Shown here one piece after another: positions 16,363 to 35,446 of a DNA stretch of 64,000 bases; the stretch's first letter is position 1; the number at the start of each line of letters is the position of its first letter. Both the position numbers and the translations under genes were made by a program. The notes under the pieces were generated by a model, which saw nothing but the letters and a program-made list of their open reading frames with translations, was not told the origin of the DNA and did no database searches. The DNA is taken from contig CBDHGH010000003.1 in NCBI GenBank assembly GCA_965263065.1, positions 1,156,537 to 1,220,536 on the forward strand, written 5' to 3'. This DNA comes from Dehalococcoidia bacterium. GTDB lineage: Bacteria; Chloroflexota; Dehalococcoidia; Bin125.

Positions 16363-18706
16363 CTACGTCGCCCAGCGGACGTCGTCCTGCCCGAAGTGGA
16401 ACTTGACGTCGCCGAAGAGCTCGAACTGGAGACCGGGGTCATGAGCGACGACGGCTTTGTAGTGGACGGTCTTCACCTGGTAGGAGCGTGATTCGGCGAC
16501 GCGGTTGAGTTCGCGCATCGCCTCGATCCTCGCCTGCAGTTCGAACGTCTCCTCCACCTTGACGAGGGCAGCCTGCACCTCCGGATCTTTGTCGGGCGGC
16601 AGCATGTGGTCATGGGGCCCGCCCTCGCCGACGTTCCAGAAGACCTGCTGCCAGATGTCGCCTCGCATCGACATGCCACCCATGAAGCCCCCGACTTCCT
16701 CCGCATACCACTCCGACCAGAAGGCGGGGTGGGGCTTCGCATCGATGTTCATCGTGATGCCGACCTGGGCGAGCGCGGCCTGGACGAACAGCGACTGGTC
16801 GATGTAGAGCGGGTCGTCGGCTTTGACATTCATGTTGAACTCGAGGCCGTCCTCGAAGCCGCCGGCGGCAAGGTGCATTTGCACGACCTCCGGGTCGAAC
16901 TCCCAGAAGCGCTCGTTCGGGTCGTGATAGATGACCGACGGACCATACCAGCCCCACAGCGCCGGCGTGTGGTAGCCGCCGAAGACCGTGTCGTTCAGTT
17001 CGGTGCGATCGAAGCCGGCGTTGAACGCATGGCGGGCGTGCGGATTGTTCCAGGGCTCGATGTTCGTGTTCATATTATAGAAGCCGGTGGTGTTCGATGG
17101 CTGGATGATGAGCTCGTACCCCGCATCCCTGATGCGGTCATGGTCCTCTTCCGCCGGGAAGCGGATGGCGTCGTAATCGCCGGCGAGGAGAGCGTTGGTG
17201 GCCCCAAACGTGGCATCCTCGCCCGCGTTGAAGGTGACGCCCTCGATGTGGGGCGCGTTGGGCTTCCAGTAGTTGGGGTTGGCGTCCATGACGAAGGGGC
17301 CGTCGAGGGACTCCTCGACGAAGACGTGGGCCCCGGTGCCAACGGGCGTGTTGCGGTTATTCAGCTCCGTGAAGTCGTCGAAGGAGTTCGGCGAGAGGAT
17401 CAGGCCGGCGCGGTCCCCGAGGATCCAGAGCAGCGGCGAGAACGGCCGATCCATCCGGAACGCCGCCGTCATCGTGTCGGTCTCTTCGACGCTCCCCACG
17501 GCGGCGAGGTCGCCCTTGATGGTCGAGGCCTCCAGCGTCTTGCCGCGCTCGATCCAGAGCCGCACCGCCTCCGCGGTGAGCGGCAGGCCGTCGTGGAACT
17601 GCACGTTCTCGCGGATGCTGAAGATCACGTTGAGCGGGTCCGGGGTCTCCCAGCTCTGGGCCAGGCTGCGGTCCGGCTGGGGCGTCAGGGACGCGTCGTA
17701 GGACACGAGGGGGTCGTAGAGACACCAGAGCATCGCGTGATCGTTGCCGTTCGTCCCGGTCCCCGCCTCGGTCCCGCCGAAGTTCGGCGTTGGGATGCGG
17801 ACACGGGGGCCCCGGAGGGCGGCGGCCGCCGTGGCCTGCGCCGCGGAGGCGGACTCGGCGGCCGTGGCGGCGGTGTCGGCGGCCTCCTGGGCCGCGTCGG
17901 CGGCCTCTTCGGCGGCGGCGACGGCGGCGGCGGCGGTCTCGGCCGCGGCTTCGGCGGCCTCTTCGGCGGCGGCGACGGCCGCGGCGGCGGTCGCGGCGGC
18001 AGTGGATGCGGCGGCTTCCGCGGCTGCGGACGCCTCCCCGGCTGCGGCCGCGGCCGCCGCCGCCGCCTCGGCAGCGTTGTCGATGGCGGCCTGGGCGGCC
18101 GCCGCGGTGGCCGTGCCGGCTTCGACGGCCGCGGCGACGTCGCGGGCGGCCTGGGCAGCGGCCTCGGCGGCCTGCGCGGCGGCGTCCGCGACGGCCGCGG
18201 CCGCGGCGTCACCGGCCGCGGATGCGGCGTCGGCAGCCTGGGCGGCAGCCGCAGCCGCGGCTTCCGCGGCGGCGGCCGCGTTGGCGGCGTCCTCCGACTC
18301 AGCGGCCTCGGCGGCCAAGGCGGCGGCCGCATCGGCGGCGCTGGCCGCCTGCGAGGCGGCGGCGGAGGCCTCGCCGGCGGCGTCTGCCGCGTCGGCCGCG
18401 GCGGCGGAGGCCTCGCCTGCGGCGTCTGCCGCGTCGGCCGCGGCGTCTGCCGCGCCGGCCGCGGTGGCGGCCGCGGCCTCGGAGTCGGCGGCGCGCGCCT
18501 CCCCGGCGGCGACCGCCGCGGCGGCGGCCTCTTCCGCGGCCGCGGCGGCCCGTTCGGCCGCCACGGCGCCGGCGTCGGGCCCGTCGTCGTCGCCGCAGCC
18601 GACCAGGGCCAGCCCGGCGGCCCCAACGCCCGCTTTGGCGCTGGCTCCCAACATGGTGCGGCGTGAGATCTTCCGCTGTCGCAGGGCGGTCCAGTAGTTG
18701 CTCATG
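16363..18706 (-). CDS. ABC transporter substrate-binding lipoprotein (family 5, peptide/nickel/opine type) with Tat signal and ~290-aa poly-Ala/Glu/Asp linker
   Basis: MSNYWTALRQRKISRRTMLGASAKAGVGAAGLALVGCGDDD has the Tat RR motif and a lipobox. Roughly 290 residues of A/E/D-rich low complexity follow, then the family-5 SBP domain. The ATG at 18706 is confirmed in sequence. Confidence 0.85.
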
Positions 18707-18897
18707 GTCGATTCCTTTCTGTGGAACGCGGGTGCCGCCCACCTGGGGACGGGCTCGCGAAACCAGAGCGGGCGCATTGTGACGCAAGGGGAGGGGGCAG
18801 TCAAGGTTTTGGGAAAGTTCTTTTTTACACTGTGGATAATCGGGATGCAGGGAACCTGCCCCCCTCTGTATCTCTGCATCAGGGTGTGGAGAGGGGG

Positions 18898-20085
18898 TCA
18901 GGGGGTGAGGTCGAGCGCCGCCGACAGCGCCGCGTCGTCGGTGGGCAGCGCCTCCACGACCCCCACCGCGTCGATCAGCACGTACGTCACGCTGGCCCCC
19001 GCCCCGAACAGCGCCGCGGCGTCGCGCTCCCAGACCAGGCTCGTGTACGCCGCGACCGTCGCCAGCGGCGCCGAGGGTGTGCGGGCAATCGCCGCCTCGA
19101 TCCCGGCCGCCGCCGCCGACTCCACGGCCCGGCGCAGTTCGTCGTCGCACTGCGTGCAGTTCGGGCGGGCGAAGACCAGCAGCACGGCCCGCCCGCGCTG
19201 GTCCGAGAGGCGCCAGCGCCGCCCCGGGTCGTCCGCGCTCGCCAGCACGCTGTCGTCCGCGCTCGCCAGCACGAGGTCCGGCGCGAGCGACCCCACCCGC
19301 ACCCCAATGCGCACCGCGTCGCCGGCCGCCGCCAGCAGCGCCGCCGGCAGCGCCTTCGGGCCCGGCGCCAGCAGCGGCCCCACCGGCTCGGCCAGCGTCG
19401 CGACCAGATCGGCCATCGCCTCCTCGAAGCTCGCGTCGGGCGCCTGGCCGCGGAAGATCGTGCGGATCACGCCGTCGGGCCCCAGGAACATCGTGTGCGG
19501 CGGCCCCAGCGTCCCGCCGATGCCGTAGCGCCGCGTGACGGCGCCGTCGAAGTCCATGGGCAGCGCGAAGTTGATCCCGAACTCCGCCGCGAAGTCCCCC
19601 GCCGGCGACCGCGCCTCCTCGATGTTGACCCCCACGACGATCAGCCCGGCCTCGCGGTACTGCTCCTGCAGCCGGATCAAGACCGGCATCTCGCGGCGGC
19701 AGGGGGCGCACCACGACGCCCAGAAGTTCAGCACCACCGGGTGCCCCGCCCAGTCCGACAGGCGGAAGCGCCCGCCGTCGAGGGTCTCCAGTTCGAAGTC
19801 GGGCGCGAGCCGGCCGATGGCGTCGTCAGGCGGCAGGGCCGCGTCGGGCAGGTCCGGGGGCAGCAGGTACGCCGGACGCGCCGCCGGCCCCAGGTCGCCG
19901 CCGCGGTCGGGCCCGGCGCCGTCGCCCAGCGTCAGCCAGAGCGGGATCGCGACCGCCAGCAGCACCAGCAGCGCCACGACCAGCGTGCGCGCGCCGTGGT
20001 ACTCGCGCGGGCGGGTGGGATGCTCGTCGGGGAAGCCGGCGCCGGCGCCGTCCGCCGCTGCGCTGTCCGAGTCGTCGCTGCTCAT
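18898..20085 (-). CDS. membrane-anchored TlpA/ResA-like thiol-disulfide oxidoreductase with a second degenerate redoxin-like domain
   Basis: An N-terminal TM helix, then LNFWASWCAPCRREMP (CxxC thioredoxin fold), then a second half carrying FARPNCTQCDDE. The ATG at 20085 follows GGGAG. Confidence 0.75.
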   Translation of the reverse strand: MSSDDSDSAAADGAGAGFPDEHPTRPREYHGARTLVVALLVLLAVAIPLWLTLGDGAGPDRGGDLGPAARPAYLLPPDLPDAALPPDDAIGRLAPDFELETLDGGRFRLSDWAGHPVVLNFWASWCAPCRREMPVLIRLQEQYREAGLIVVGVNIEEARSPAGDFAAEFGINFALPMDFDGAVTRRYGIGGTLGPPHTMFLGPDGVIRTIFRGQAPDASFEEAMADLVATLAEPVGPLLAPGPKALPAALLAAAGDAVRIGVRVGSLAPDLVLASADDSVLASADDPGRRWRLSDQRGRAVLLVFARPNCTQCDDELRRAVESAAAAGIEAAIARTPSAPLATVAAYTSLVWERDAAALFGAGASVTYVLIDAVGVVEALPTDDAALSAALDLTP

Positions 20086-20214
20086 AGGGGCTGTGCTCCC
20101 GCACGATTCTACGGCCGGACGGCTGCCGCGGCCCTCCGCGCCGCCCGGTCGCCATTCGTCAGCAGCCCCAGGCCGCATCTCCGGCTATCCTCGCCGCGCT
20201 GGAGGGACCGCCCG

Positions 20215-20727: not shown

Positions 20728-20729
20728 CG

Positions 20730-21338: not shown

Positions 21339-21394
21339 CGCCTAGTGACAGTGCCCCGGCGTCGTGGCAGTGCGCCGATTCCCGGCCGCCCCAG

Positions 21395-22300
21395 CTAGCG
21401 CACGTTGCGCAGCCGCGGATCGAGCGCGTCGCGCAGCCAGTCGCCCATCAGGTTGCCGGTCAGCGCGATCGTCAGCAGGGCCAGCCCCGGCAGCCAGATC
21501 GGCCACCAGGCGACGTTCATGAATTCGCGGCCCTCCGAGATCATCACCCCCCACGACGGCGTGCCCGCCGGCGCGCCGACGCTGAGGAAACTCAGCGCGG
21601 CCTCGGCCAGGATCACCAGCGCGACCTCCAGCGTCATGATGATCACGACGGTGTTGACGACGTTCGGGAACAGGTGCTTGCGCATGATCCAGGCCGGCCC
21701 CGCGCCCACCGCCCGGGAGGCCGTCACGAAGTCGCGCTCCCGCAGCGAGAGCACGTCGGCCCGCACCAGCCGGGCGTACGCGGGCCAGGTCCAGATCAGC
21801 AGGATGATGATCACGTTGCGCAGGCTCGGCCCCACCAAGCTCGCCAGCAGCACCGCGAAGAGCATCGCCGGCAGCGCCAGCTGCACGTCCACCAGCCGCA
21901 TCAGCAGCTGGCCGGTGAGGCCGCCCACCCAGCCCGCGACCAGCCCGATCAGCGTCCCCACCAGCGCCGCGCCCGGCACGACGAGGAAGACCACGATCAG
22001 CGCGATGCGCGCGCCGTACAGCAGCCGGCTGAAGATGTCCCGCCCCACGTGGTCCGTGCCCAGGACATGGTCCCAACTGCCCCCGTCGAAGACGGGCGGC
22101 TGCAGGCGCCCGCCCAGGTTGAGGAACTCCGGGTCGTGCGTCGCCAGCCAGTCCGCCCCCACACCCGCCACGAGCAGCGCCAGCGCGATCAGGGCGGGGA
22201 CGGACAGCCCCAGCCGGCGCCGCCAGCGCCTGCCGCCCCGTCGCCGCTCGACGGCAACAACCGGAGCCTGCGCCGCGGTCTCCGCCGTCGGCCGGGCCAT
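21395..22300 (-). CDS. ABC transporter permease (DppC-like), copy A
   Basis: 301 aa and ~90 % nucleotide identity to 31045..31938. It has an N-terminal Arg-rich cytoplasmic tail and the EAA motif. Confidence 0.85.
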   Translation of the reverse strand: MARPTAETAAQAPVVAVERRRGGRRWRRRLGLSVPALIALALLVAGVGADWLATHDPEFLNLGGRLQPPVFDGGSWDHVLGTDHVGRDIFSRLLYGARIALIVVFLVVPGAALVGTLIGLVAGWVGGLTGQLLMRLVDVQLALPAMLFAVLLASLVGPSLRNVIIILLIWTWPAYARLVRADVLSLRERDFVTASRAVGAGPAWIMRKHLFPNVVNTVVIIMTLEVALVILAEAALSFLSVGAPAGTPSWGVMISEGREFMNVAWWPIWLPGLALLTIALTGNLMGDWLRDALDPRLRNVR

Positions 22301-23238
22301 CAGGCGGCCCCCGCCCGGATGCGCGGGTCGATCAGCCGGTACGACACGTCCACCAGCAGGTTGGTCACCGCGATCGACGCCGCCAGCACGATGATCGACG
22401 CCTGCACCATCGGGTAGTCACTCTGGACGATCGAGTCGACGATCAACCGGCCGATCCCCGGCCAGGCGAACACCAACTCGATGATCACCGAGCCGCCGAT
22501 GAGGCGGCCGAGCGAGAGGCCCAGCAGCGTCACGACCGGCAGCAGCGCGTGCCGCACGGCGTGCCGCCGGATCACCAGCCGCTCGCTCAGCCCCTTGGCC
22601 CGCGCCGTGCGAATGAAGTCGGTGTCCAGCACGTCGATCATCCCCGACCGGGTCAGCCGCATGATCGCGACCAGCTCCAGCAGCCCCAGCGACAGCGCCG
22701 GCAAGATCAAGGACCGGAAGCCGTCCTCCGCGCCGGCGGTCGGGAACCAGCCGAGCCGCACGGAGAAGAAGAAGATCAGCATCAGGCCCAGCCAGAAGCT
22801 CGGCGTGGCCTGCCCGATCACGGCCAGGAAGCGGGCCAGCCAGTCGACGGCCCGGCCCCGCCGCAACGCCGCCACGAGCCCCAACGGCGCCCCCAGCGCG
22901 ATCGCGAACACCATGCCGGCCGCCCCCAGCTTGAACGTGTTCAGCGCCCGGTCGCCGATCGCGCCGATCGCCGGTTTGCCCCCGCCCCGAAACGAGGTCC
23001 CCAAGTCCCCTTGCGCCAGGTCCCAGAGGAACTTGCCGTACTGGACGAACAGCGGGTCGTTCAGCCCCAGGGTCTCCTTCAGCTGCTCGACGTCGGCGGC
23101 CCGCCGCGACTCCATCGGCAACAGGGTCGCCACGGGATTCCCCACGAGGCGCGAGACGAAGAAGACGATCGTCACGACGAGGAAGACGACGAAGAAGGCC
23201 TGCGTGAGCCGGATCGCGAAATAGTGCCAGAACTGCAT
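22300..23238 (-). CDS. ABC transporter permease (DppB-like), copy A
   Basis: MQFWHYFAIRLTQAFF..., 312 aa, paralogue of 31938..32876. ATGA overlap with the downstream permease. Confidence 0.85.
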   Translation of the reverse strand: MQFWHYFAIRLTQAFFVVFLVVTIVFFVSRLVGNPVATLLPMESRRAADVEQLKETLGLNDPLFVQYGKFLWDLAQGDLGTSFRGGGKPAIGAIGDRALNTFKLGAAGMVFAIALGAPLGLVAALRRGRAVDWLARFLAVIGQATPSFWLGLMLIFFFSVRLGWFPTAGAEDGFRSLILPALSLGLLELVAIMRLTRSGMIDVLDTDFIRTARAKGLSERLVIRRHAVRHALLPVVTLLGLSLGRLIGGSVIIELVFAWPGIGRLIVDSIVQSDYPMVQASIIVLAASIAVTNLLVDVSYRLIDPRIRAGAA

Positions 23239-23365
23239 CAGGTCCCTTGCCGATCACGCGCCGGCGGTCCCGGGGGCGTGTGCCGCGGGCGTCGGCGCCC
23301 GCGGCGTCTCGCCGGCTCCGATCCCGGTGGGCGCATCCGACAGGGGCGCGTTCGGCGGGGGCCGC

Positions 23366-24280
23366 CTACGCGAACTGGTCGCGGCCGGCGACCTCGAGTG
23401 CCGCGGTGCGCCCCGGCTCTTCCTCGTACTTGAACGGGTAGAGGTGCTCGAGGCCCAAGAGGCGCGGCAACTCGGGGTGGCGGTCGAGGAGATTGGGGTC
23501 GCTCTCCCGCCAATCCTGGATCGGCTTCATGTACGCGCGCATCCACATCAGAGCCAGGGTGACGCGCAGGCCGGGCGTGGTGCGGGGCAGCGCGCCGTGC
23601 CAAGTCGCGCCGTGCCAGACGACCAGGGAGCCCTCGCGCGCGCTCAGCGGCACGACGCGGTAGGGGTTGTCCTCCCGCGTGAAGTCCTGCTCGTGGAGGA
23701 AGGGGGCGCGACCGAAGAGGTGGCTGCCCGGCACGTAGACCGTGGGGCCGTCCTCCTCATTGCTGTAGTCGCTCAGCACCCAGGAGGTGTTGCAGAAGTG
23801 GGCGTTCTGGGACATGGGCGGCGGCACGGCTAGGGCGTCGCAGTGGAGCAAGAGGGGCTTCGTCTGGTCGTCCGTGCTGATCCCGGGAGCCTTGTTGCTC
23901 CCCTTGAGCAGCCAGGTGGCGCCGGTCATGACCGCGCTCTGGCCGCACATCCAGCGGGCGATCGCCAGGGCCGCCGGGTTGAGGACAGCTTCGACGAAGG
24001 CCTCGTCCTCCTCGAGCAGCCACCAACTGTTCCGGAACCCCGCCTTGAGCTCGGCCGTGCGGTAGTCGTCGATCGGATCATCGTTGCGGGCGCCGTGCGT
24101 GCGCAGGATGGCGTCGCGCAGGCGCTCCACGAAGCCGGGCGCGGCCACCGTCTTCTCCGGCGGGATGACGGTGAAGCCGTAGGCGTCGAGCTCGACGACG
24201 TTGTGCTCCAAGCCGTAGCGGGTGATCTCGCTGACGGCGGCGTCGGCGGCGGGGGAGGCGTGCAGAGCGGTGATGTCCAT
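23366..24280 (-). CDS. phytanoyl-CoA dioxygenase (PhyH) family Fe(II)/2-oxoglutarate dioxygenase
   Basis: 304 aa from the ATG at 24280 (GGAAGG upstream). The PhyH-like HCD...H pattern (LLLHCDAL ... GSHLFG ... VVWHGATWHGALP) is present. The gene is embedded between the substrate-binding-protein and DppB genes of operon 2. Confidence 0.75.
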   Translation of the reverse strand: MDITALHASPAADAAVSEITRYGLEHNVVELDAYGFTVIPPEKTVAAPGFVERLRDAILRTHGARNDDPIDDYRTAELKAGFRNSWWLLEEDEAFVEAVLNPAALAIARWMCGQSAVMTGATWLLKGSNKAPGISTDDQTKPLLLHCDALAVPPPMSQNAHFCNTSWVLSDYSNEEDGPTVYVPGSHLFGRAPFLHEQDFTREDNPYRVVPLSAREGSLVVWHGATWHGALPRTTPGLRVTLALMWMRAYMKPIQDWRESDPNLLDRHPELPRLLGLEHLYPFKYEEEPGRTAALEVAGRDQFA

Positions 24281-24330
24281 GATCGGGTCTTCCCTTCCGA
24301 AAGTCGCGGGAGGTTCCGGGACGTCGCGCG

Positions 24331-26727
24331 TTAGATGTGCCGCTGCACGGCGTAGGTGCTGCCCCCAAACAGATATCCGGCGCGCCCGCCCTTGGGCCAG
24401 TTGACGTCGCCGCGGGTCAGCACGGCGTCCGGGGCCTCGACGATGAAAATCAACCACGCTTGGCGCGCGTGCTCCAGGAACAGCTCCGTGATCAGCTCCA
24501 GGCGCCGCGCCGGATCTTGCTCGGCCCTCTGCGCGAGGTACAGCTCCTGCAGGGCCGGATCGTGGACCCCCTCGCCGTTGAGCTCGAAGAAGTCGGATTC
24601 GCCCGAGGCGCAGCAATCCCACATCGATCCGACGTCGCGGTTGTTGTTGGCCCAGAACCAGTAGAGGCCCGGCGGGGAGTCGCGGCCGCCCCTCACGTAA
24701 GCGTCGGTCAAGTACTCGGCCAGGAGGGTCGACTCTTCGTGCGCGCGGATGCCGACCGCGGTCAGGTCCTGCACCACCGCCAGCACCATGTCCGCCTCGT
24801 ACGCGCCGCCCCAGTCGGTCGTCCAGTACAGAGGGATGTCGAAGCCGTCCGCGTAGCCCGCCTCTGCCAGCAGTTGCTTGGCCCGCTCGGGGTCGTAGTC
24901 GTACTGGACTTCCTGCTTCTGCTCCGGGCTGGGATAGCCGTTGACGCCGGTGAACGCGAAGAGTGGATACGTGCCCTGGCCGAGCAGGAGGTTGTCGATG
25001 ATGGATTGGCGGTTGATCGCGTGGTTCGCGGCTTGGCGGACGCGGAGGTCCAGGAACGGGTTCGGGCTGCCGTCCGGCATCGTCTCGGGGAACAGGTTGG
25101 GATAGAGGACCTGGATGGCCCACGGTCCGGCGGGCTGGAACTGCACGGCGAAGTCGGGGTCGTCCGCGTACGGCGCCACGTGATTGGGGCCCAGTTCCGC
25201 CACCATGTCGATCTCACCGGCCTCCAGGCCGGCGAGCCGCGACTGGATCTCGGGCCGTATCACGACCCTCAGGTGTTTGTTGTGGGCGTAGTGCGGCACC
25301 ACGAGGGGGTGGTCGACCGGGCGGAACTGGTCCTCGAAGCGCTCGAAGACGAAGTCCGTGTCGTCTTCGTGGCTGACGAAGCGGTAGGGGCCGGTGCCCA
25401 TCGCCTCCTGATCCACCGCGGCGTCGCCGCGCCGCTCCACGTCCGCTTGCGACATGATGCCGATCTCCAAGGTCGAGGCCAGGTCGATGATGAAGTAGGC
25501 CGGATTGAACGCCGGCAACTCGAACGACCACGTGCGGTCGTCCACGGCCTCGTTCCGGACCCAGTCCCGGGCGCTGGCCCGGTTGGGGTTCCAGGGGGCC
25601 CAGCCGCCGGGGTGATCGCTCGTCTCGCCGCCCTGGTGGTATTCGGCGAGACCGCCCTTGCGGTCGAAGTTGAACACCATGTCGTGGGCGGTGAGGATCG
25701 AGCCGTCGTGGAACGGCGCCGGCACAACCGACGCCACGATCGACGTGGCGTCGATCCACTCCGGCGCGGCGAGGTCTGGGATCGGCAAGCCATCGCGGGG
25801 ATCTATCGCCATGGGCGCGTTGAAGACGGCGCCGTGCGAGTAGTGGTTCGTGATGCTGGCGGAGCGGTGCTGATCCACCCCCCCCTGGTCGGAGGGGACC
25901 ACCCCGACGATCGAGGCGTCCAGATCGACCTGGTCGAGCGGCCAGGGGACGGTGAACTCGGCGGCCTCGGATATGGCCATGCCGGCCTCGACGGCCGCCG
26001 CAGCCGCGCTGGCGGCCTCCCCGGCCGCCTCGGCGGCCTCTTGGGCGGCGGCAACGGCCGCCGCGGCGGTCTCGGCGGCGGCTTCGGCGGTCTCCTGGGC
26101 CGTGGCGGCGGCCGCCCCGGCGGCGGCGGACGCCTCCCCGGCCGCGGCGGCAGCCGCAGCGGCCGCGTCGGCGGCCGCGTCGATGGCGGCCTGGGCGGCC
26201 GCCGCGGTGGCGGTGCCGGCCTCGACCGCGGCGGCCGCATCACGGGCGGCCTGGGCGGCGGCCTCGGCGGCCTGAGCGGCGGCGTCCGCGACGGCCGCGG
26301 CCGCGGCGTCACCGGCTGCGGATGCGGCGTCGGCGGCCTGGGCGGCCGCCGCAGCCGCGGCTTCCGCGGCGGCGGCCGCGTTGGCGGCGTCCTCCGATTC
26401 GGCCGCCTCGGCGGCCAGGGCGGCGGCGGCATCGGCGGCATCGGCGGCCTGCGAAGCCGCGGCGGCGGCCTCGGATGCGGCGGCCGACGCTTCGGACGCC
26501 GCGGCCGACGCCTCACCCGCGGCGCTGGCCGCAGCGCTCGCGTCACCCGCTGCGGCGTCAATCGCCGACGTATCGACCGCGGCCGGCGCGGCGTCATCGT
26601 CGTCGTCGCCGCAGCCGACCAAGGCCAGCCCGGCTGCTCCAACCCCAGCCTTCGCGCTGGCTCCCAACATGGTGCGGCGCGAGATCTTCCGCTGTCGAAG
26701 GGTCGTCCAATAGTTGCGGTCGCTCAT
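24331..26727 (-). CDS. ABC transporter substrate-binding lipoprotein (family 5) with Tat signal and ~330-aa poly-Ala/acidic linker, paralogue 2
   Basis: MSDRNYWTTLRQRKISRRTMLGASAKAGVGAAGLALVGCGDDDDD, then an Ala/Glu/Asp/Ser-rich low-complexity stretch of ~330 aa, then the SBP domain. The ATG at 26727 is confirmed. Confidence 0.85.
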   Translation of the reverse strand: MSDRNYWTTLRQRKISRRTMLGASAKAGVGAAGLALVGCGDDDDDAAPAAVDTSAIDAAAGDASAAASAAGEASAAASEASAAASEAAAAASQAADAADAAAALAAEAAESEDAANAAAAAEAAAAAAAQAADAASAAGDAAAAAVADAAAQAAEAAAQAARDAAAAVEAGTATAAAAQAAIDAAADAAAAAAAAAGEASAAAGAAAATAQETAEAAAETAAAAVAAAQEAAEAAGEAASAAAAAVEAGMAISEAAEFTVPWPLDQVDLDASIVGVVPSDQGGVDQHRSASITNHYSHGAVFNAPMAIDPRDGLPIPDLAAPEWIDATSIVASVVPAPFHDGSILTAHDMVFNFDRKGGLAEYHQGGETSDHPGGWAPWNPNRASARDWVRNEAVDDRTWSFELPAFNPAYFIIDLASTLEIGIMSQADVERRGDAAVDQEAMGTGPYRFVSHEDDTDFVFERFEDQFRPVDHPLVVPHYAHNKHLRVVIRPEIQSRLAGLEAGEIDMVAELGPNHVAPYADDPDFAVQFQPAGPWAIQVLYPNLFPETMPDGSPNPFLDLRVRQAANHAINRQSIIDNLLLGQGTYPLFAFTGVNGYPSPEQKQEVQYDYDPERAKQLLAEAGYADGFDIPLYWTTDWGGAYEADMVLAVVQDLTAVGIRAHEESTLLAEYLTDAYVRGGRDSPPGLYWFWANNNRDVGSMWDCCASGESDFFELNGEGVHDPALQELYLAQRAEQDPARRLELITELFLEHARQAWLIFIVEAPDAVLTRGDVNWPKGGRAGYLFGGSTYAVQRHI

Positions 26728-26880
26728 CACATGTTCCCTTCTGGTCCCCGGCTGTCCCGTTGTGGGACCGCTCGGTGCGTGAGCGCGCACAGTATGGCAG
26801 GTTAAGAGAGTACCCGCCACTCTCGTTATGTCACATCGAAAAGAACTATTGATGCTCCCATGGAATTTATCGGTGCCGGG
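26728..26880 (-). promoter_or_regulatory. conserved structured 5' leader / promoter region of SBP paralogue 2 (near-identical copy at 35447..35600)
   Basis: ~150 nt is >90 % identical between the two loci. It includes an AT-richer segment (AATAGTTCTTTTCGATGTGACATAACGAG), three predicted hairpins and a GAAGGGAA Shine-Dalgarno. Confidence 0.6.
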
Positions 26881-26917: not shown

Positions 26918-26937
26918 CCCCCCCCCCCCCCCCCCCC
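26918..26937. repeat. homopolymeric tract, 20 consecutive C (G20 on the transcribed strand)
   Basis: Read directly: gacgctgccc cccccccccc cccccccgcc. It sits immediately 3' of the DUF2064 gene stop and at the upstream edge of the SBP2 promoter/leader. Confidence 0.9.
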
Positions 26938-26942
26938 GCCAG

Positions 26943-27641: not shown

Positions 27642-28321
27642 CAGCGGATGTGCCGGTACAGCCGCGCCAGCCGATGCGGCGAGACGCCGGCGCAGTAGCC
27701 GAGCTGAATCACGACCCACGACGCCCAGGTGCGCGCGAGGCCCCCCCGCTCCCAGCGCCGCGGCGAGGCGCGGACGGCGGCTCGCAGGTACGCCATCCGC
27801 CCCATCCGGTGCAGCCGCCGCACGAACGCCAGATCCTCCATCAGCGGGACGGGCGGGAAGCCCCCGCACGCCGCGAAGGCGCCGGCCCGGCAGAAGAGCG
27901 CCGAGTCGCCGTAGTACACCCGGCAGCGCCGCATCACGTGGTAGAGCGCGGCCAGGAAGCGACCGTGCGCGCTGGGCCCGAAGTCGACGCGGTGGTTGCC
28001 CCCCACGACGCGGGCGTCGCGCAGGGCGGCCCGCATCGCGCGGCCCGCGGCCGGATGCAGGCGGGCGTCGGCGTGCAGGAAGCAGTAGATCTGGCCGCGC
28101 GCCGCCTCGGCCCCCCGATTGAGCTGCGGCCCCCGCCCGCGTGCGCCCGTCACGACCCGCGCGCCCAGCGATTCCGCGATCGGCGCCGTCGCGTCGTGGG
28201 ATCCCGCGTCGCTGACGATGACCTCGTCGGCCCCGGCCGCGAGGGCGCTCGACACGGCGCCGGCGATCGCCTCCGCCTCGTTGAGGGTGGGAATGATCAC
28301 GCTCAGCATCGGCTGCGACAC
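27641..28321 (-). CDS. family 2 glycosyltransferase (TIGR04283-like), partner of the DUF2064 protein
   Basis: LSVIIPTLNEAEAI....VIVSDAGSHD is a GT-A fold with a DxD-like motif. The start is GTG at 28321 or ATG at ~28309. Confidence 0.75.
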   Translation of the reverse strand: MSQPMLSVIIPTLNEAEAIAGAVSSALAAGADEVIVSDAGSHDATAPIAESLGARVVTGARGRGPQLNRGAEAARGQIYCFLHADARLHPAAGRAMRAALRDARVVGGNHRVDFGPSAHGRFLAALYHVMRRCRVYYGDSALFCRAGAFAACGGFPPVPLMEDLAFVRRLHRMGRMAYLRAAVRASPRRWERGGLARTWASWVVIQLGYCAGVSPHRLARLYRHIR

Positions 28322-28382
28322 GATGTCCTCCCCCGCGCAGGCCGACCCGCGGAGGGCCGCCCGGCTCGGCTACGATAGATGC

Positions 28383-29228
28383 ATGGCTACCGCGCCGGCT
28401 GCCGCACCCCTGCTTCCCGTCGATCCGCCCCGCCGCGCGACCTTCGCCCACGCGACCGCCTTCGTCGCCGGCTTCTCGGTGGTCTTCGTGGTGCTGGGCG
28501 CGTCGCTGGGGGTCGTGGGCTTCGCGCTGCAGGAGCAGATGATTTGGTTCCAGCGCGTGGCCGGGGTGGCGCTGATCATCCTCGGCCTGCACCTGGCCGA
28601 GCTGATCACCATCCCCTTCCTCTGGCGCACCTACCAGTTCGGCGCCGATGGACCCCCGCCGGCGACGCCGGCCGCCCCCCGCGGTCGCCTGCGCAAGTAC
28701 GGCCACTCGCTGTTCGTCGGCTCCGCCTTCTCGCTCGGCTGGACGCCCTGCGTGGGGCCGATCCTGGCCGGCATCCTGACGCTCGCCGCCGACGGCGCCT
28801 CCGTCGCGCAGGGCACGCTGCTGCTGCTCTTCTACGCCGCCGGCCTGGGCATCCCCTTCCTCATCGTTGGCGCCGCCCTGGGGTCGGCGACGGCCCTGCT
28901 GCGCCGGCTGGGCCCGTACATGTCGCTCATCTCCATCGCCAGCGGCGTGCTGCTGGTCTTCATGGGCATGCTGATCGTCCTCGACAACGTGCGCGTCCTC
29001 AACGACAGCTTCACCTTCATCCCCAGCACCGAGGACACGGGCGCCGCGACGGTGACGGGCGCGTTCGGCTTCGGCATCGCCTTCCTGGGCGGGCTGCTGT
29101 CGTTCCTGTCCCCGTGCGTGCTGCCGCTGGTGCCCGTCTACCTGGGCCACCTGGCGGGCGTCGGCGCGCAGGAGGCGTCGCGGCAGGCGCAGCGCGACGC
29201 CGCCGCGCCGCCCCTCGGGGCGGGCTGA
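28383..29228 (+). CDS. ccdA: cytochrome c-type biogenesis protein CcdA (DsbD-family transmembrane thiol-disulfide electron carrier)
   Basis: Six TM helices and both conserved Cys (LGWTPCVGPILAG and LSFLSPCVLPLVPVY). The ATG at ~28383 follows GGAGGG. Confidence 0.8.
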   Translation: MATAPAAAPLLPVDPPRRATFAHATAFVAGFSVVFVVLGASLGVVGFALQEQMIWFQRVAGVALIILGLHLAELITIPFLWRTYQFGADGPPPATPAAPRGRLRKYGHSLFVGSAFSLGWTPCVGPILAGILTLAADGASVAQGTLLLLFYAAGLGIPFLIVGAALGSATALLRRLGPYMSLISIASGVLLVFMGMLIVLDNVRVLNDSFTFIPSTEDTGAATVTGAFGFGIAFLGGLLSFLSPCVLPLVPVYLGHLAGVGAQEASRQAQRDAAAPPLGAG

Positions 29229-29308
29229 GTCAGCCGCCGTTGAAGCGCGGCAGGCCCTTGCGCCGCCCGCGCCTCGACAACATTTGCCAAGCTGTCTAGC
29301 ATTGCCGT

Positions 29309-29904: not shown

Positions 29905-29976
29905 TCCTGGGCGCCGGCCGGTACGCTGCGGCCATCCGACCCACCCCATCGGACCCAGCGAGGAAAGGACCGTGCG

Positions 29977-30339: not shown

Positions 30340-30350
30340 CGCGCACCCTG

Positions 30351-30920: not shown

Positions 30921-31044
30921 GACGACTCCTCGCGGGCATCCGGTCGGCGCCTCGGGCGCGACCGTTTGCCGGCAGTTTAGCCCAGCGCCCGTGCGGCGGC
31001 GCGCCTGGGTTGCGGCCGCGTGCGGATGGTCGGGCGCCCCGACG

Positions 31045-31938
31045 CTAGCGCACGTGGCGCAGGCGCGGATCGAGGGCGTCGCGGAGCCAATCGCCCATCA
31101 GGTTGCCGGTCAGCGAGATCGTCAGCAGGGCCAGGCCCGGCAGCCAGATGGGCCACCAGGCGACGTTCATGAAGTCCCGGCCCTCCGAGATCATCACCCC
31201 CCACGACGGCGTGCCCGGCGGCGCGCCCACGGTCAGGAAGCTCAGCGCCGCCTCGGCCAGGATCACCAGCGCCACCTCCAGCGTCATGATGATCACGACG
31301 GTGTTGACGACGTTCGGGAACAGGTGCCGGCGCATGATCCAGACGGGGCCTGCCCCGGTCGCCCGCGATGCCGTGACGAAGTCGCGCTCCTTGAGCGTGA
31401 GCACGTCGGCGCGCACCAGCCGCGCGTACGCGGGCCAGGTCCAGATCAGCAGGATGATGATCACGTTGCGCAGGCTGGGCCCGACCAGGGCCGCCAGCAG
31501 CACCGCGAACAGGATGCCCGGCATGGCCAGCTGCACGTCGACCAGGCGCATCAGCAGTTGGCCGGTGAGGCCGCCCGCCCAGCCCGAGATCAGCCCCACC
31601 AGCGTCCCGAGCAGCGCCGCGCCCGGCACCACGGCCCCGACGACGATCAAGGAGATCCGCGCGCCGTACAGCAGCCGGCTGAAGATGTCCCGCCCCACTT
31701 GGTCGGTGCCCAGGAAGTAGTCCCAGCTGCCCCCGGCGAAGACGGGCGGCTCCAAGCGCCCGCCCAGGTTGATGAACTCCGGGTCGTGCGGCGCCAGCCA
31801 GTTCGCCCCCAGGCCCGCGACGAGCAGCGCCAGCGCGATCGCGCCGGGCACGGACAGCCCCAGCCAGCGCCGCCAGCGGATGCCGCGCCGCCGCTGCGCC
31901 AGGGGCGTCGCCGTCTGGCCCGCCGCTTGGCCCGCCAT
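31045..31938 (-). CDS. ABC transporter permease (DppC-like), copy B
   Basis: 297 aa, paralogue of 21395..22300 (~90 % nucleotide identity). Confidence 0.85.
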   Translation of the reverse strand: MAGQAAGQTATPLAQRRRGIRWRRWLGLSVPGAIALALLVAGLGANWLAPHDPEFINLGGRLEPPVFAGGSWDYFLGTDQVGRDIFSRLLYGARISLIVVGAVVPGAALLGTLVGLISGWAGGLTGQLLMRLVDVQLAMPGILFAVLLAALVGPSLRNVIIILLIWTWPAYARLVRADVLTLKERDFVTASRATGAGPVWIMRRHLFPNVVNTVVIIMTLEVALVILAEAALSFLTVGAPPGTPSWGVMISEGRDFMNVAWWPIWLPGLALLTISLTGNLMGDWLRDALDPRLRHVR

Positions 31939-32876
31939 CAGGCGGCCCCCGCCCGGATGCGCGGGTCGATCAGCCGGTACGACACGTCGACCAGCAGGTT
32001 CACGACCGCGATCGAGGCCGCCAGCACGATGATCGAGGCCTGCACCATCGGGAAGTCGTTCTTGAAGATCGAGTCGACGATCAGCCGGCCGACCCCGGGC
32101 CAGGCGAACACCATCTCGATGATCACCGAGCCGCCGATCAACCGGCCCAGCGAGAGGCCCAGCATCGTCACGACCGGCAGCAGCGCGTGCCGCACGGCGT
32201 GCCGCCCGATGACCACCCGCTCGCTCAGCCCCTTGGCCCGCGCCGTGCGAATGAAGTCGGTGTCCATGACCTCGATCATCCCCGAGCGGGTGAGCCGCAT
32301 GATCGCGACCAATTCAAACAGGCCGAGTGCGATCGCGGGCAGGATCAACGAGCGGAAGCCCGCGTCTTCACCGCCGGTCGGGAACCAGCCCAACTGGACG
32401 GCGAAGAAGAAGATCATCATCAGGCCCAGCCAGAAGCTCGGCGTGGCCTGCCCGATCACCGCCACGAAGCGCGCCAGCCAGTCGATGACCGTGCCCCGCT
32501 TCAACGCCGCGAGGATGCCCAGCGGGACCGCCAGCGCGAGCGCGAACACCACGCCCGCCACCCCCAGCTTGAGCGTGCTCACCGCCCGGTCGCCGATCGC
32601 GGCGAGCGCCGGCGTGCCCCCGCCCAGCCACGAACTCCCGAAGTCGCCTTGCGCCAACTTCCCCAGGAAGATGGCGTATTGGACGTGGAGCGGGTGGTGC
32701 AGCCCGAGATCCTCCCGCAGGCGCTCGACGGCTTCGGGCCGTCGCTGGTCGGGCGCCAGCAGGGTCGCCTCGGGATTGCCCACGAGGCGCGAAACGAAGA
32801 AGACGGTCGTCGCGACGATGAAGACGACGAAGAACGCCTGGACCAGCCGGATCGCGAAGTAGCTCCAGAACTGCAT
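31938..32876 (-). CDS. ABC transporter permease (DppB-like), copy B
   Basis: MQFWSYFAIRLVQAFF... The start is the internal ATG; the ORF extension to 32930 starts at TTG. ATGA overlap with the downstream permease. Confidence 0.85.
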   Translation of the reverse strand: MQFWSYFAIRLVQAFFVVFIVATTVFFVSRLVGNPEATLLAPDQRRPEAVERLREDLGLHHPLHVQYAIFLGKLAQGDFGSSWLGGGTPALAAIGDRAVSTLKLGVAGVVFALALAVPLGILAALKRGTVIDWLARFVAVIGQATPSFWLGLMMIFFFAVQLGWFPTGGEDAGFRSLILPAIALGLFELVAIMRLTRSGMIEVMDTDFIRTARAKGLSERVVIGRHAVRHALLPVVTMLGLSLGRLIGGSVIIEMVFAWPGVGRLIVDSIFKNDFPMVQASIIVLAASIAVVNLLVDVSYRLIDPRIRAGAA

Positions 32877-32934
32877 CAGTCCCCCTGCGGTGCGGGCGCT
32901 GGTGGTCCGGCGGCAGTGTAGCGGAGGCAACCAT

Positions 32935-33210
32935 GCCGGCGGGCCGCCGGAATCTGACCCCCGAACCGAACCCCCTCTCCGTTGCAGAGCATAGGAGAGG
33001 GAATCGGATCCCCTCTCCCCAGGGGAGAGGGTGAGGGTGAGGGGGACCCGGCGCCCGCGCCCCTGTCCCCCTCTCCATCCTTCTGGATGGAGAGGGAATC
33101 GGATCCCCTCTCCCCCTTGGGGGAGAGGGTTCGGGTGAGGGGGTCTCCGCGACCGCGGACCCTCACCCTAGCCCTCTCCCAGGGGGAGAGGGGACCGGAG
33201 GTTCCGGCGC
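32935..33210. repeat. second cluster of CCCCTCTCC/GGAGAGGGG palindromic hairpin repeats (REP-like)
   Basis: At least six hairpins, for example CCCCTCTCCCC-A-GGGGAGAGGG, CCCTCTCCATCC-TTCT-GGATGGAGAGGG, CCCCTCTCCCCC-TT-GGGGGAGAGGG and GGGTGAGGG...CCCTCACCC. The position (SBP to DppB intergenic) matches 16110..16360. Confidence 0.75.
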
Positions 33211-33211
33211 C

Positions 33212-35446
33212 TTAGGTGGCCTTGCGCCGCTGGATGGCGTAGGCCGAGCCGCCCCACGCGAAGCCGGTGCTCCCGCCCTTGGGCCAGTTGACGTCCGCCG
33301 GGGTTAGCACCGCGTCCGGCGCCTCGACGATGAAGATGAGCCACGCTTGGCGCGCGTGCTCCAGCATCAGTTCCGCGGTCATCGCGCTGCGCCGTGCGGG
33401 ATCGAGCTCGGCGCGCTGTGCGAGGTACAGCTCGTGCAGGGCCGGATCCATAACCCCCTCGCCGCCGAGCTTCGTGAAGTAGGATTCGGGCCCGACGCAG
33501 CAATCCCACATCGATCCGATGTCGCGGACGATGTTGGCCCACATCCAATAGAGGCCCACCGGGCGGTCGCGGCCGCCGACGAGGTAGGCGTCGGAGAAGT
33601 ACTCGGAGACGAGGGCCGCCTCCGGCTGCGTGCGGATGCCGATCGCGGCCAGGTCCTGGGCCACGGCCGGCACCATGTCCGCCATGGCCTGGCCGCCCCA
33701 GTCGGTCGTCCAGTACAGCGGAACCTCGAAGCCGTCCGCGTAGCCGGCCTCCGCCATCAACTGCCGCGCCAGTTCGGGGTCGTAGTGGTACTCGACTTCC
33801 GCCCGCTGCTCCGGGGTCGGGTAGCCGTACACGCCGGCGAACGTGAACAGAGGATAGTGGCCCTGGCCGAGCAGGAGGTTGTCGATGATGGCTTGGCGGT
33901 TGATCGCGTGGTTCGCGGCCCGGCGGACGCGGAAGTCGAGGAACGGGTTCGGGCTGCCGTCCGGCATCGTCTGGGGGTACAGGTTGGGATAGAGCACCTG
34001 GATGGCCGCCCCGTTGATGCCGGGTTGGTATTGCACCGTGAAGTCGGGGTCGTCCAGGTACGGCTGCACGTTGTTGGGGCCCAGGTCCGGCACCACGTCG
34101 ATCTCCCCGGCCTCGAGGCCGGCCAGCTGCGACTGGATCTCGGGCCGCACCACGACCCGCTGGTGCTTGTGGTGGGCGTAGCGCGACACGACGACGGGAT
34201 GGTCGACCGGGAGGAAGTGCTCCTCGAAGCGCTCGAAGACGAAGTCCGTGTCGTCTTCGTGGCTGACGAAGCGGAAGGGGCCAGTACCCATCGGTGAGGT
34301 GTCCATCGCGAGGTCGCCGCGCGCCTCCGTGTCCGCCTGCGACATGATGACGACCTCGCCGGTCCCGGCCAGGTTGACGACGAAGAAGCCCGCATCGGGC
34401 AACGGCAACTCGATCGACCAGGTGCGGTCGTCCACGGCCTCGTTGCGGACCCAGTTCGCGGAGCTCCGGCCGAAGTTCGAGGGGGTCCAGCCGCTGGGGT
34501 GATCGGTCGTCTCGCCGCCCTGGTGGTAGGCGGCCTTCCCGGCCATGCGGTCGTAGCTGAACACGATGTCGTGGGCGGTGAGGATCGAGCCGTCGTGGAA
34601 CGGCGCCGGCACCACCGACGCCACGATCGACGTTTGGTCGACCCACTCCGGCGCGGCGAGATGCGGGATCGCCACGGCGGCGGCGGGCTCCCATTCCATG
34701 GTCGGACTGAAGACGGCGCCGTGCGAGTACTGGTTCGTCTTGCTGCCGGTCCGCATCTGGTCCAGCCCCCCCGCGTCGGAGGGGACCACCGGGATGATCG
34801 TGGCGTCCAGGTCGACCTGGTCGAGCGGCCAGGGCACGGAGAAGTCCTCGGTGTCGCCCAGGACGGCGACGGCGGCGACGGCTTCGACGGCCTCGCGGGC
34901 TGCGTCGGCGGCCTCCTCGGCGGCCGTGGCGGCGACCGCCGCGGCCTCAGCGGCGGCCTGGGCCGCGGCGGCGGCGGCGGCCGTGTCCTCGGCGCCCACC
35001 TCCCGCGCGGCGGCGGCCGCGGCCCCGGCGGCATCGGCGGCCGCCTGCGCGACGGCCGCGGCGCCCGCGTCCCCCGCGGCCCGGGCCGCGTCGGCGGCGT
35101 CGGCCGCGGCGTCGGCGGCGGCCTGAGCGGCGGCGGCCGCGGCCGCGGCGTCATCGGAGCTGGCGGCTTCGGCCGCCATCGCGGAGGCGGCTTCGGCGGC
35201 TTCGGCGGCGCGGCCCGCGGCATCGGCGGCGTCGCTCGCGGCCTCCGCCGCAGCCGCGGCGTCGCCCGCGGCGGCGTCGATCGCCGACGTATCGACCGCG
35301 GCCGGCGCGGCGTCATCGTCGTCGTCGCCGCAGCCGACCAAGGCGAGGCCGGCGGCCCCAACCCCAGCCTTCGCGCTGGCTCCCAACATGGTGCGGCGTG
35401 AGATCTTCCGCTGTCGCAGGGTCGTCCAATAGTTGCGGTCGCTCAT
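33212..35446 (-). CDS. ABC transporter substrate-binding lipoprotein (family 5) with Tat signal and ~250-aa poly-Ala/acidic linker, paralogue 3
   Basis: The signal peptide is identical to paralogue 2 (MSDRNYWTTLRQRKISRRTML...LVGCGDDDDD). An Ala/Asp/Glu-rich linker of ~250 aa follows, then an SBP domain closely related to paralogue 2. The ATG at 35446 is confirmed. Confidence 0.85.
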   Translation of the reverse strand: MSDRNYWTTLRQRKISRRTMLGASAKAGVGAAGLALVGCGDDDDDAAPAAVDTSAIDAAAGDAAAAAEAASDAADAAGRAAEAAEAASAMAAEAASSDDAAAAAAAAQAAADAAADAADAARAAGDAGAAAVAQAAADAAGAAAAAAREVGAEDTAAAAAAAQAAAEAAAVAATAAEEAADAAREAVEAVAAVAVLGDTEDFSVPWPLDQVDLDATIIPVVPSDAGGLDQMRTGSKTNQYSHGAVFSPTMEWEPAAAVAIPHLAAPEWVDQTSIVASVVPAPFHDGSILTAHDIVFSYDRMAGKAAYHQGGETTDHPSGWTPSNFGRSSANWVRNEAVDDRTWSIELPLPDAGFFVVNLAGTGEVVIMSQADTEARGDLAMDTSPMGTGPFRFVSHEDDTDFVFERFEEHFLPVDHPVVVSRYAHHKHQRVVVRPEIQSQLAGLEAGEIDVVPDLGPNNVQPYLDDPDFTVQYQPGINGAAIQVLYPNLYPQTMPDGSPNPFLDFRVRRAANHAINRQAIIDNLLLGQGHYPLFTFAGVYGYPTPEQRAEVEYHYDPELARQLMAEAGYADGFEVPLYWTTDWGGQAMADMVPAVAQDLAAIGIRTQPEAALVSEYFSDAYLVGGRDRPVGLYWMWANIVRDIGSMWDCCVGPESYFTKLGGEGVMDPALHELYLAQRAELDPARRSAMTAELMLEHARQAWLIFIVEAPDAVLTPADVNWPKGGSTGFAWGGSAYAIQRRKAT

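Follow-up and report, generated by a model that had tools for sequence, protein, structure and literature searches.

Three genes on the minus strand of a 64,000-nucleotide (nt) stretch of DNA from a Dehalococcoidia bacterium (contig CBDHGH010000003.1, positions 1,156,537 to 1,220,536; hereafter the window) encode family-5 substrate-binding proteins (SBPs) of ATP-binding cassette (ABC) transporters, here called P1, P2 and P3, in which the lipid anchor and the binding domain are separated by a long segment dominated by alanine and acidic residues, the stalk. We infer, with moderate confidence, that this stalk is a polyanionic, semi-rigid helical spacer carried by the SBPs of a monoderm envelope of S-layer type and homogenised by gene conversion. 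The original prediction for this DNA had read the stalk as generic low complexity; that description gives way here to one of position-specifically conserved, heptad-phased cassettes that are common to many paralogues and genomes. The stalk was defined as the Ala-rich acidic segment that runs from the lipidated Cys to the first strand of the binding domain, and the features of the three proteins are the following.

16363..18705, minus strand: P1, a family-5 ABC substrate-binding lipoprotein of 780 amino acids (aa) with leader, 260-aa stalk and binding domain (open reading frame (ORF), translation, Pfam)
18595..18705, minus strand: P1 leader, with the SRRTML twin-arginine motif, the hydrophobic region (h-region), the lipobox LVGC and Cys37 (read from the sequence)
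17815..18594, minus strand: P1 stalk, aa 38-297 (composition, AlphaFold model of the stalk alone)
18026..18365, minus strand: stalk block common to P1 and P2, P1 copy (in-register nt identity)
16366..17814, minus strand: P1 binding domain, cluster C SBP fold (Pfam, PDB sequence matches)
24331..26727, minus strand: P2, a family-5 ABC substrate-binding lipoprotein of 798 aa (ORF, Pfam, AlphaFold, Foldseek)
26611..26727, minus strand: P2 leader, with twin-arginine motif and lipobox, Cys39 (read from the sequence)
25963..26610, minus strand: P2 stalk, aa 40-255 (composition, full-length AlphaFold model)
26126..26465, minus strand: stalk block common to P1 and P2, P2 copy (in-register nt identity)
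33212..35446, minus strand: P3, a family-5 ABC substrate-binding lipoprotein of 744 aa (ORF, Pfam)
34859..35329, minus strand: P3 stalk, aa 40-196 (composition)

The three proteins begin in the same way. A Shine-Dalgarno (SD) sequence of the GGA type lies 8-10 nt 5' of each start, and the N-termini read MS(DR)NYW..RQRKISRRTMLGASAKAGVGAAGLALVGC-GDDD, which comprises a twin-arginine motif, a hydrophobic region and a lipobox (…SRRTML…LALVGC, followed by GDDD). The sequence S-R-R-T-M-L, after which comes the h-region GASAKAGVGAAGLALV, fits the pattern S/T-R-R-x-F/M-L of the twin-arginine translocation (Tat) pathway, and L-V-G-C closes the h-region in agreement with the lipobox pattern [LVI][ASTVI][GAS]C. 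Both R17 and R18 are invariant among 59 homologues, and the Cys is invariant in the 59 and in 62 aligned sequences. The leaders of P1 and P2 are 97% identical at the aa level, with synonymous differences present, and those of P2 and P3 are identical in aa sequence (100%) and 95% identical in nt. The Tat-lipoprotein signal that had been predicted for all three was read in each of them (SRRTML, h-region and LVGC), and their assignment as Tat-type lipoproteins, with predicted export and lipidation, is supported.

The binding domains are also those expected of the family. PF00496 (SBP_bac_5) matches all three proteins with E-values of 3e-52 to 6e-45 and scores of 178, 154 and 157 bits versus a cut-off of 32.4; in P1 the match covers aa 347-679 (E 3.2e-52). 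The domains of P2 and P3 share 71% of their aa and 82% of their nt, whereas the domain of P1 is 24-25% identical to that of P2 or P3, in agreement with the original prediction that P2 and P3 are close and P1 is distant. A sequence search of the PDB gave YliB/GsiB, NikA and AgaA as the closest solved structures for P1. For P2, the AlphaFold model of the domain, with a predicted local distance difference test (pLDDT) of 80-98, shows a bilobed fold of the DppA/OppA type, and the best Foldseek matches are DppA 1dpe (E 3e-28), AgaA 6hlx and 5u4o, with TMt up to 0.87 for 5u4o and 1uqw. None of the NCBIfam equivalogs (DppA, OppA, NikA, GsiB, SapA, CntA) reached its curated cut-off, the best scores being 92 bits versus 594 for GsiB and 60 versus 1005 for DppA. 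By each criterion tested, P1, P2 and P3 are ordinary family-5 SBP lipoproteins; the tether is not ordinary.

The stalk has 260 residues in P1 (A164 E24 D19, net charge -40), about 216 in P2 (A132 D17 E17 and net charge -33, counted over aa 40-252) and 157 in P3 (A93 D19 E11, net charge -26); a length of 250-330 residues had been given for all three, a range that fits P1 only and overestimates P2 and P3. Overall, the stalks contain about 62% Ala, 16-19% Asp plus Glu and no Lys, and each has one Pro, no aromatics, 7-10 Gly, 8-20 Ser plus Thr, and 7-10 residues of Val, Leu, Ile or Met. The enrichment in Pro, Gly, Ser and Thr and the low predicted order that are expected of a disordered linker were not found. 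Stalk length varies between 107 and 406 aa among 214 full-length homologues.

The stalks align block by block, and the invariant core contains GEASAAAG and then AEAAAETAAAAVAAA. Between P1 and P2 the core spans 103 codons (18019-18327 versus 26119-26427), with 97% aa and 90.6% nt identity; 100 residues are identical, 23 of them with different codons, and three residues differ. Given about 95 synonymous and 214 non-synonymous sites, the proportion of synonymous sites changed (pS) is about 0.24 and that of non-synonymous sites (pN) about 0.014, which results in a pN/pS of about 0.06. A constraint that acts only on composition is disfavoured, because the positions of E, D, S, Q, N, G, T, V, I, L and R do not drift. 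When the two stalks are compared in register (offset 8100), 340 nt are 90.0% identical (18026..18365 versus 26126..26465) and the flanks 20-50%; the baseline for in-frame comparisons out of register is 58%, with a maximum of 64%. A block of about 400 nt with more than 90% identity had been described for this pair and ascribed to recent gene conversion of the stalk. The shared block is real, its quoted part (18060..18360 versus 26160..26460) being exactly 90.0% identical, but the extent at 90% or more is 340 nt; likewise the exchange is real, but with 23 synonymous versus three non-synonymous differences this event is not a recent one. The P1/P2 block is best read as the product of an older exchange, since kept by purifying selection.

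The truly recent conversions are those between strains. P0004 is the P2 orthologue of a sister strain, located on a 2.90-Mb contig at a locus syntenic with that of P2, including the gene of the PhyH family and both permease genes that accompany P2. From nt ~590 to the stop codon P0004 is about 100% identical to P2 in nt sequence, whereas its nt 148-530 are 97-100% identical to the stalk of P3 and 72-80% to that of P2; the breakpoints lie just past the leader/DDDDD and at the stalk/domain junction. For the P3 orthologue found in OZ244557.1, pS is 0.014 in the domain and 0.34 in the stalk, and P2 orthologues differ in the N-terminal stalk module that they carry. The stalk of P1 is 98% identical to that of P0124 (same length, 265) and the domain 67%, while P0122, with a stalk of 225 aa, and P1 have domains that are 88% and stalks that are 84% identical. 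Clustering the 214 stalks at 88% identity gave 50 types, and a single stalk type was found on domains merely 22-24% identical, in up to eight domain groups. From these comparisons the histories of stalk and domain are decoupled, and the stalk DNA behaves like a cassette flanked by the near-invariant leader and a conserved junction sequence. Recombination among the many paralogues of a genome repeatedly replaces or resizes the stalk in seven-residue steps, with selection keeping the aa sequence of each block.

The seven-residue steps were detected at several levels. In each of the three stalk regions, Tandem Repeats Finder reported many repeats with periods of 21 and 42 nt, and in pairwise comparisons of stalk types at least 85% identical, 297 of the 590 gaps of 4 aa or more are multiples of seven (231 of 7 and 54 of 14); the pairs of stalk types are not independent, and the excess over 1/7 is large. 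Near-identical P2 orthologues have 798, 805 and 812 aa, with the whole difference in length located in the stalk. In addition, the acidic residues of P1 follow a 3.6-residue period (p ~0.003 versus shuffles), which is weaker in P2 and not significant in P3. An inspection of the conserved core by eye revealed no clear a/d hydrophobic pattern, V, L and I being too few and irregular; a canonical coiled coil is not claimed for a sequence in which these residues are so sparse.

AlphaFold, which had been suggested together with the original prediction and was applied to full-length P2 and to the stalk of P1, predicts a helical stalk in both. In the P2 model (59 homologues, mean pLDDT 75) the helices span residues 54-111, 114-137, 141-169 and 175-255 with a pLDDT of 50-75, and values below 50 occur only at aa 1-55 and 227-256, the latter being the stalk/domain junction. 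The P1 stalk modelled alone (15 stalks, mean pLDDT 80, predicted template modelling score (pTM) 0.47) forms helices at 8-99, 103-158 and 164-260, that is, of 92, 56 and 97 residues with a pLDDT of 75-97; they are interrupted at S-E-D and E-A-G-T-A, and the N- and C-terminal parts are the most confident (pLDDT 84-97). A Foldseek search of the PDB with this model gave no significant match (best E 2.3), and its weak best matches are elongated helical hairpins or bundles: Maxi 4ke2 (45% identity), ClyA and Tsr. If the stalk were one straight helix with a rise of 0.15 nm per residue, it would measure 39 nm in P1, 32 nm in P2 and 24 nm in P3; a three-helix zig-zag of the P1 stalk would reach about 20 nm.

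All related loci belong to metagenome-assembled genomes (MAGs) of Dehalococcoidia/Chloroflexota, including closed chromosomes of 2.65-2.9 Mb, and several of the relatives' bins are, we presume, from sponge metagenomes. A haloarchaeal origin, suggested by the Tat lipoproteins and the acidic proteins, was ruled out by this distribution. The 2.70-Mb contig of the window itself encodes at least about 13 stalked family-5 SBPs (P0026, P0071, P0086, P0102, P0107, P0110, P0136, P0148, P0150 and P0227, together with P1, P2 and P3), a lower bound drawn from the best 120 of about 490 matches per search. The 45-residue leader retrieved 387 representative clusters (E<=1e-3) among 1.84 billion proteins. In the leader-bearing proteins the commonest linker past GCGDDDDD is Gln-rich and of about 45-90 aa; others are Glu/Ala/Gln-rich, or are Ala-rich stalks of 120-235 aa, and the most distant of these proteins have ordinary Pro/Thr/Gly linkers of 20-50 aa. 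Of those with at least 330 aa, 49 of 62 match SBP_bac_5, a few match Peripla_BP_4 or NMT1, and LTD and DUF6851 appear as oddities. The few candidates outside family 5 that were inspected have short Pro/Ala linkers (proteins not paired one by one with Pfam families). A HMMER search with the stalk only gave six matches, all of them truncated family-5 SBPs, and the composition correction leaves other domain families undecided.

Ninety-seven SBP genes from the related loci have the same leader and DDDDD, followed by a Q-, E- or A-rich linker. The Ala fraction of the linker rises (rho 0.44) and that of Gln falls (rho -0.33) with the GC content of the domain, while the share of acidic residues stays at about 0.18-0.20, and that of basic residues at about 0.02, across the three GC bins with good sampling. 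Dehalococcoidia relatives of lower GC content have the same leader with shorter, Gln/Glu-rich linkers. The stalks of the window, whose GC content is 70-78%, are thus the long, high-GC end-member of a lineage-wide device, and the constants of its linker are negative charge, no basic residues and helix-favouring filler residues. The genome of OZ244557.1 (L035 6001..; L036, minus strand, 7738), which has Ala stalks, also encodes two contrasting proteins with essentially the same leader, namely an SBP with a 57-aa Glu/Gln/Ala-rich linker and a 643-aa lipoprotein without a low-complexity linker; the stalk is therefore not obligatory for every user of the leader.

In the mechanism that we propose, the mature protein would consist of Cys-Gly-Asp(3-5), the long α-helical, Ala-rich polyanionic stalk and, last, the binding domain. 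The stalk would serve as a semi-rigid spacer whose joints are a few Gly/Ser/Thr breaks, and the run of Asp next to the lipid together with a net charge of -26 to -40 would repel it from the anionic membrane and from neighbouring stalks. The binding domain would be held about 15-40 nm over the cytoplasmic membrane, within or at the S-layer-type layer of a peptidoglycan-less monoderm cell, where it would capture the solute; to reach its cognate permease pair for docking, the arm would next have to bend or tilt. Relatives of lower GC content would use the same device, shorter and with Gln/Glu in place of Ala. Dehalococcoidia have been described as monoderm cells that lack genes for peptidoglycan synthesis and bear an outer layer resembling an S-layer (PMC10444878). 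Of the "thick wall or S-layer" that had been invoked for the stalks, the S-layer agrees with this description and the thick wall does not. By analogy, a lipid-anchored SBP in Dehalococcoidia would resemble an archaeal one, placed under or in an S-layer canopy.

Several points weigh against the spacer. The extended stalk rests on prediction, with a pTM of 0.47 and no significant Foldseek match, and the three helices of the AlphaFold model could pack as a bundle, with a reach reduced to about 14-20 nm, or make up a folded domain with another role; the periodicity of the acidic residues, significant in P1, is weaker in P2 and absent in P3. A long tether cuts the local concentration of the domain at the permease, a cost that the spacer model leaves unexplained, and lengths spread between 107 and 406 aa speak against a single, constant distance set by the envelope. 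The heptad indels could come from slippage of the 21-nt repeats and not from selection for helical phase. Finally, the published envelope description is one of Dehalococcoidia at large, and a 64-kb window is too short to show an absence of peptidoglycan genes.

As an alternative, the stalk may fold into an Ala-rich helical bundle or coiled coil and form a domain whose own function, such as oligomerisation or docking to an S-layer protein or envelope partner, would make distance secondary. This alternative is consistent with stalks conserved by position at 95-98% while the domains are 67-72% identical, with the pN/pS of about 0.06 in the P1/P2 core, and with indels in multiples of the heptad, which preserve the register of a coiled coil; also, the three AlphaFold helices, most confident in the N- and C-terminal parts of the stalk (pLDDT 84-97), look as if packed, and the weak Foldseek matches (Maxi 4ke2, ClyA, Tsr) are elongated helical hairpins or bundles. 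However, those matches reach at best E 2.3 and the model a pTM of 0.47, and the 7-10 V/L/I/M per stalk leave almost nothing for a hydrophobic core, while a net charge of -26 to -40 without Lys disfavours tight self-association unless counter-ions are present. Moreover, whole blocks have been deleted or duplicated (107-406 aa) with the gene retained, and the lower-GC relatives use a Gln/Glu-rich sequence of unrelated composition. We consider a folded domain unlikely.

It also seems improbable that intrinsic disorder makes the stalk an entropic tether or a brush at the surface, in which only the acidic composition and a rough length matter and Ala is the by-product of a genomic GC content of 72% acting on a former Gln/Glu linker. 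All non-Ala positions were kept while 23% of the synonymous sites changed, and a composition-only constraint allows drift; Ala and Glu are strong helix formers, the AlphaFold helices have a pLDDT of 75-97, and the indels are heptad-phased. Pro and Gly are rare, unlike in typical disordered lipoprotein linkers, and the more distant leader-bearing proteins do carry linkers rich in P/T/G, of 20-50 aa. Such a tether is nonetheless in line with the way in which linker composition tracks GC (Ala rho 0.44, Gln rho -0.33) at a constant acidic fraction, with the extremely low complexity of the stalk and its wide variation in length, and with the pLDDT below 50 of the first 55 residues and the stalk/domain junction of P2.

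That the stalk is not part of the protein at all, but arose from misannotation or misassembly of GC-rich repeats while the true start lies downstream, is extremely improbable, and the artefact and wrong-start readings are effectively refuted by the following comparisons. High-GC DNA yields long spurious ORFs in several frames, and a few database entries are frameshifted (PPPRP frame) or truncated (P0057, L009). Against this, GC content at third codon positions (GC3) is 0.78-0.96 across the stalk in the annotated frame, and both GC3 and the synonymous/non-synonymous pattern match that frame; they fit it only, so an antisense or alternative-frame gene in the stalk DNA was rejected. The frame stays open through the stalks of 107-406 aa in the 214 full-length homologues, and the variants in length are separated by whole numbers of codons. 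The exact three proteins are present on a contig of 2,702,507 bp, their clusters at 90% identity or more have 10-17 members each from many assemblies, and identical or nearly identical full-length proteins recur in many independent assemblies, including closed contigs of 2.65-2.9 Mb. A true start past the low-complexity segment, which the original prediction had named as a possible objection together with an assembly artefact, was looked for and no downstream signal peptide was found: the in-frame start codons there lack a basic n-region, a hydrophobic core and a lipobox, and the binding domain would be left with no signal peptide if the N-terminal leader were taken away. The sole ATG with an SD-like site is codon 250 of P2, which is not conserved in P3, and a binding protein begun there would not be exportable, because no sequence like a signal peptide lies downstream. 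The assembly objection is answered by GC3 and by the clusters of 10-17 members. In L009 (5995.., CAXXCV010000001.1) and P0057 the stalk DNA is read in a shifted frame (PPRPPPPPRPPP), which results in truncated or chimeric products; these are either pseudogenes or sequencing/indel errors in GC-rich repeats of long-read assemblies.

Returning to the helical spacer, a search of the full-text literature retrieved no description of Ala- or Gln-rich stalks on SBPs of Dehalococcoidia/Chloroflexi, which is no proof of novelty. Like the lipid-anchored SBPs of Gram-positive bacteria and archaea (DppA/OppA/NikA-type, cluster C), P1, P2 and P3 have the PF00496 fold, the lipobox Cys and two permeases of the DppB/C type; in contrast with the usual DppA/OppA/NikA-type sets, they reach no NCBIfam equivalog cut-off and have no adjoining ABC ATPase gene. 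The usual tethers of SBPs are short and flexible, typically tens of residues rich in Ser/Thr/Pro/Gly, whereas the stalks described here have 157-260 aa (107-406 in the family) with about 60% Ala, are predicted to be helical and are conserved by position. The A-region of streptococcal antigen I/II is a long, Ala-rich, heptad-patterned α-helix that presents a binding domain tens of nm off the cell surface; this protein is sortase-anchored at its C-terminus and its A-helix is stabilised by pairing with a Pro-rich polyproline II (PPII) region, while the stalks have no Pro-rich partner, an N-terminal lipid anchor and a transporter component as cargo. Domain II of TolA (Ala-rich) and Braun's lipoprotein Lpp are long helical elements that span the envelope or set a distance in it. 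The former is Lys/Glu/Ala-rich, zwitterionic and held by a transmembrane anchor, and the latter a short trimeric coiled coil linked to peptidoglycan; the stalks, in contrast, have no Lys, are strongly anionic, belong to a monoderm lineage and carry a solute-binding domain. The hyperactive type I antifreeze protein Maxi (4ke2), the best Foldseek match to the stalk, has very long Ala-rich helices, with an 11-residue periodicity in a water-filled four-helix bundle. The match is not significant (E 2.3, TM 0.2), its 45% identity arises through Ala richness, and Maxi is not homologous and has no anchor and no cargo.

In LirL of Acinetobacter baumannii a lipobox is followed by Ala-rich acidic repeats [AAAS(E/D)(V/A/T)], with 48% Ala and an isoelectric point of about 4.5, and the role of a rigid scaffold has been proposed for it (PMC9499571). 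It differs from the stalks in its length (81-86 aa), in having no attached domain and about six hexapeptide repeats, in its location in the inner membrane of a diderm, and in showing no detectable homology. DUF1735 of lipoproteins from polysaccharide utilisation loci (PUL) of Bacteroidota is proposed to be a membrane-proximal module that holds the functional domain off the membrane (PMC11216935); unlike the stalks, it is a defined, named domain family, found in Bacteroidota only, with a carbohydrate-active enzyme as cargo. None of antigen I/II, TolA, Lpp, LirL and DUF1735 is homologous to the stalks or combines an N-terminal lipid anchor, a polyanionic Ala helix of 150-400 residues (predicted here) and the binding domain of a transporter.

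In this uncultured Dehalococcoidia lineage, many SBPs of each genome have a conserved and strongly acidic linker that separates the anchor from the binding domain, and in the high-GC clade of the window this linker has 107-406 residues and is predicted to be helical. In oligotrophic marine bacteria, SBPs usually rank with the most abundant proteins of the cell surface, and their distance from the membrane and return to the permease are normally treated as trivial. If the spacer reading is true, the stalk would serve as an envelope ruler written into the sequence of organisms without peptidoglycan that are hard to image, and it would pose a puzzle for ABC importers, namely how a domain on a 20-40-nm arm docks on its permease; it would also be a clear natural example, in a kind of sequence that most pipelines mask as low-complexity, of purifying selection acting position by position and of cassettes shuffled in heptad phase. 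The stalks and their relatives also present one device rebuilt from Gln/Glu or from Ala as the genomic GC content shifts. A bolder proposal, which we consider doubtful, is that the Ala stalks and their Gln/Glu counterparts represent an undescribed envelope architecture of peptidoglycan-less Dehalococcoidia: dozens of abundant SBPs would stand on rigid, polyanionic, heptad-phased masts of 15-40 nm and form a canopy or brush that serves as a pseudo-periplasm and is maybe part of the 'S-layer-like' layer, its height being tuned and kept uniform by cassette exchange and its blocks constituting a new folded module.

In the window, the SBP gene is followed by two BPD_transp_1 permease genes in each of the three sets (3/3, Pfam). 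The accompanying features are the following.

15160..16104 and 14271..15167, minus strand: two permease genes 3' of P1 (BPD_transp_1 with BPD_transp_1_N or OppC_N)
22300..23238 and 21395..22300, minus strand: two permease genes 3' of P2 (BPD_transp_1; order syntenic with locus L080)
23366..24283, minus strand: PhyH-family dioxygenase gene, between P2 and its permeases (PF05721, E 1.8e-20)
31938..32930 and 31045..31938, minus strand: two permease genes 3' of P3 (BPD_transp_1)
26728..26877, minus strand: promoter/5' untranslated region (5'UTR) of P2, conserved over ~150 nt and duplicated 5' of P3 at 35447..35596

The Pfam search of the window found no ABC ATPase gene (DppD/F-type) adjoining any of the three sets, and the ATPases are for this reason expected to be encoded elsewhere, perhaps shared. 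The PhyH-like (phytanoyl-CoA dioxygenase-like) gene keeps the same position in the sister strain (L080) and may be a hint at the substrate class of the P2 transporter. The stretch of about 150 nt 5' of the ATG is 93-98% identical between P2 and P3 and has a noticeably higher AT content than the DNA around it (CACCGATAAATTCCATGG, AGCATCAATAGTTCTTTTC, ATGTGACATAACGAGAG), so that promoter and 5'UTR were part of the duplication or conversion. The upstream region of P1 is unlike those of P2 and P3 and carries a TTGACT…CACAAT pair. An Rfam scan of the window gave no family match in the conserved upstream region of P2 and P3. At its distal edge, about 190 nt 5' of the start of P2, there is a perfect run of 20 C on the plus strand (26918..26937; G20 on the coding strand), which may be either a tract prone to slippage or an artefact of long-read sequencing at homopolymers.

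Other features of the window were noted. A cobalamin riboswitch aptamer at 49061..49143 (minus strand) scores 32.6 bits versus a gathering score of 31.5, barely over the threshold. The gene at 18898..20178 (minus strand) encodes a 426-aa protein in which a predicted membrane segment at the N-terminus precedes an AhpC/TSA-redoxin domain (aa 121-253); judging from its sequence, the C-terminal half of this protein may be another thioredoxin-like region that has degenerated. A direct repeat of 24 nt without mismatches (19228..19273) lies within this gene, and a DsbD_TM gene is found nearby at 28119..29228. Directly 5' of P3, 35875..38220 (minus strand) encodes, judging from its translation, a CysN-like GTPase/sulfate adenylyltransferase subunit, and it is adjoined by the gene of a PAPS_reduct-domain protein of the CysD or CysH type.

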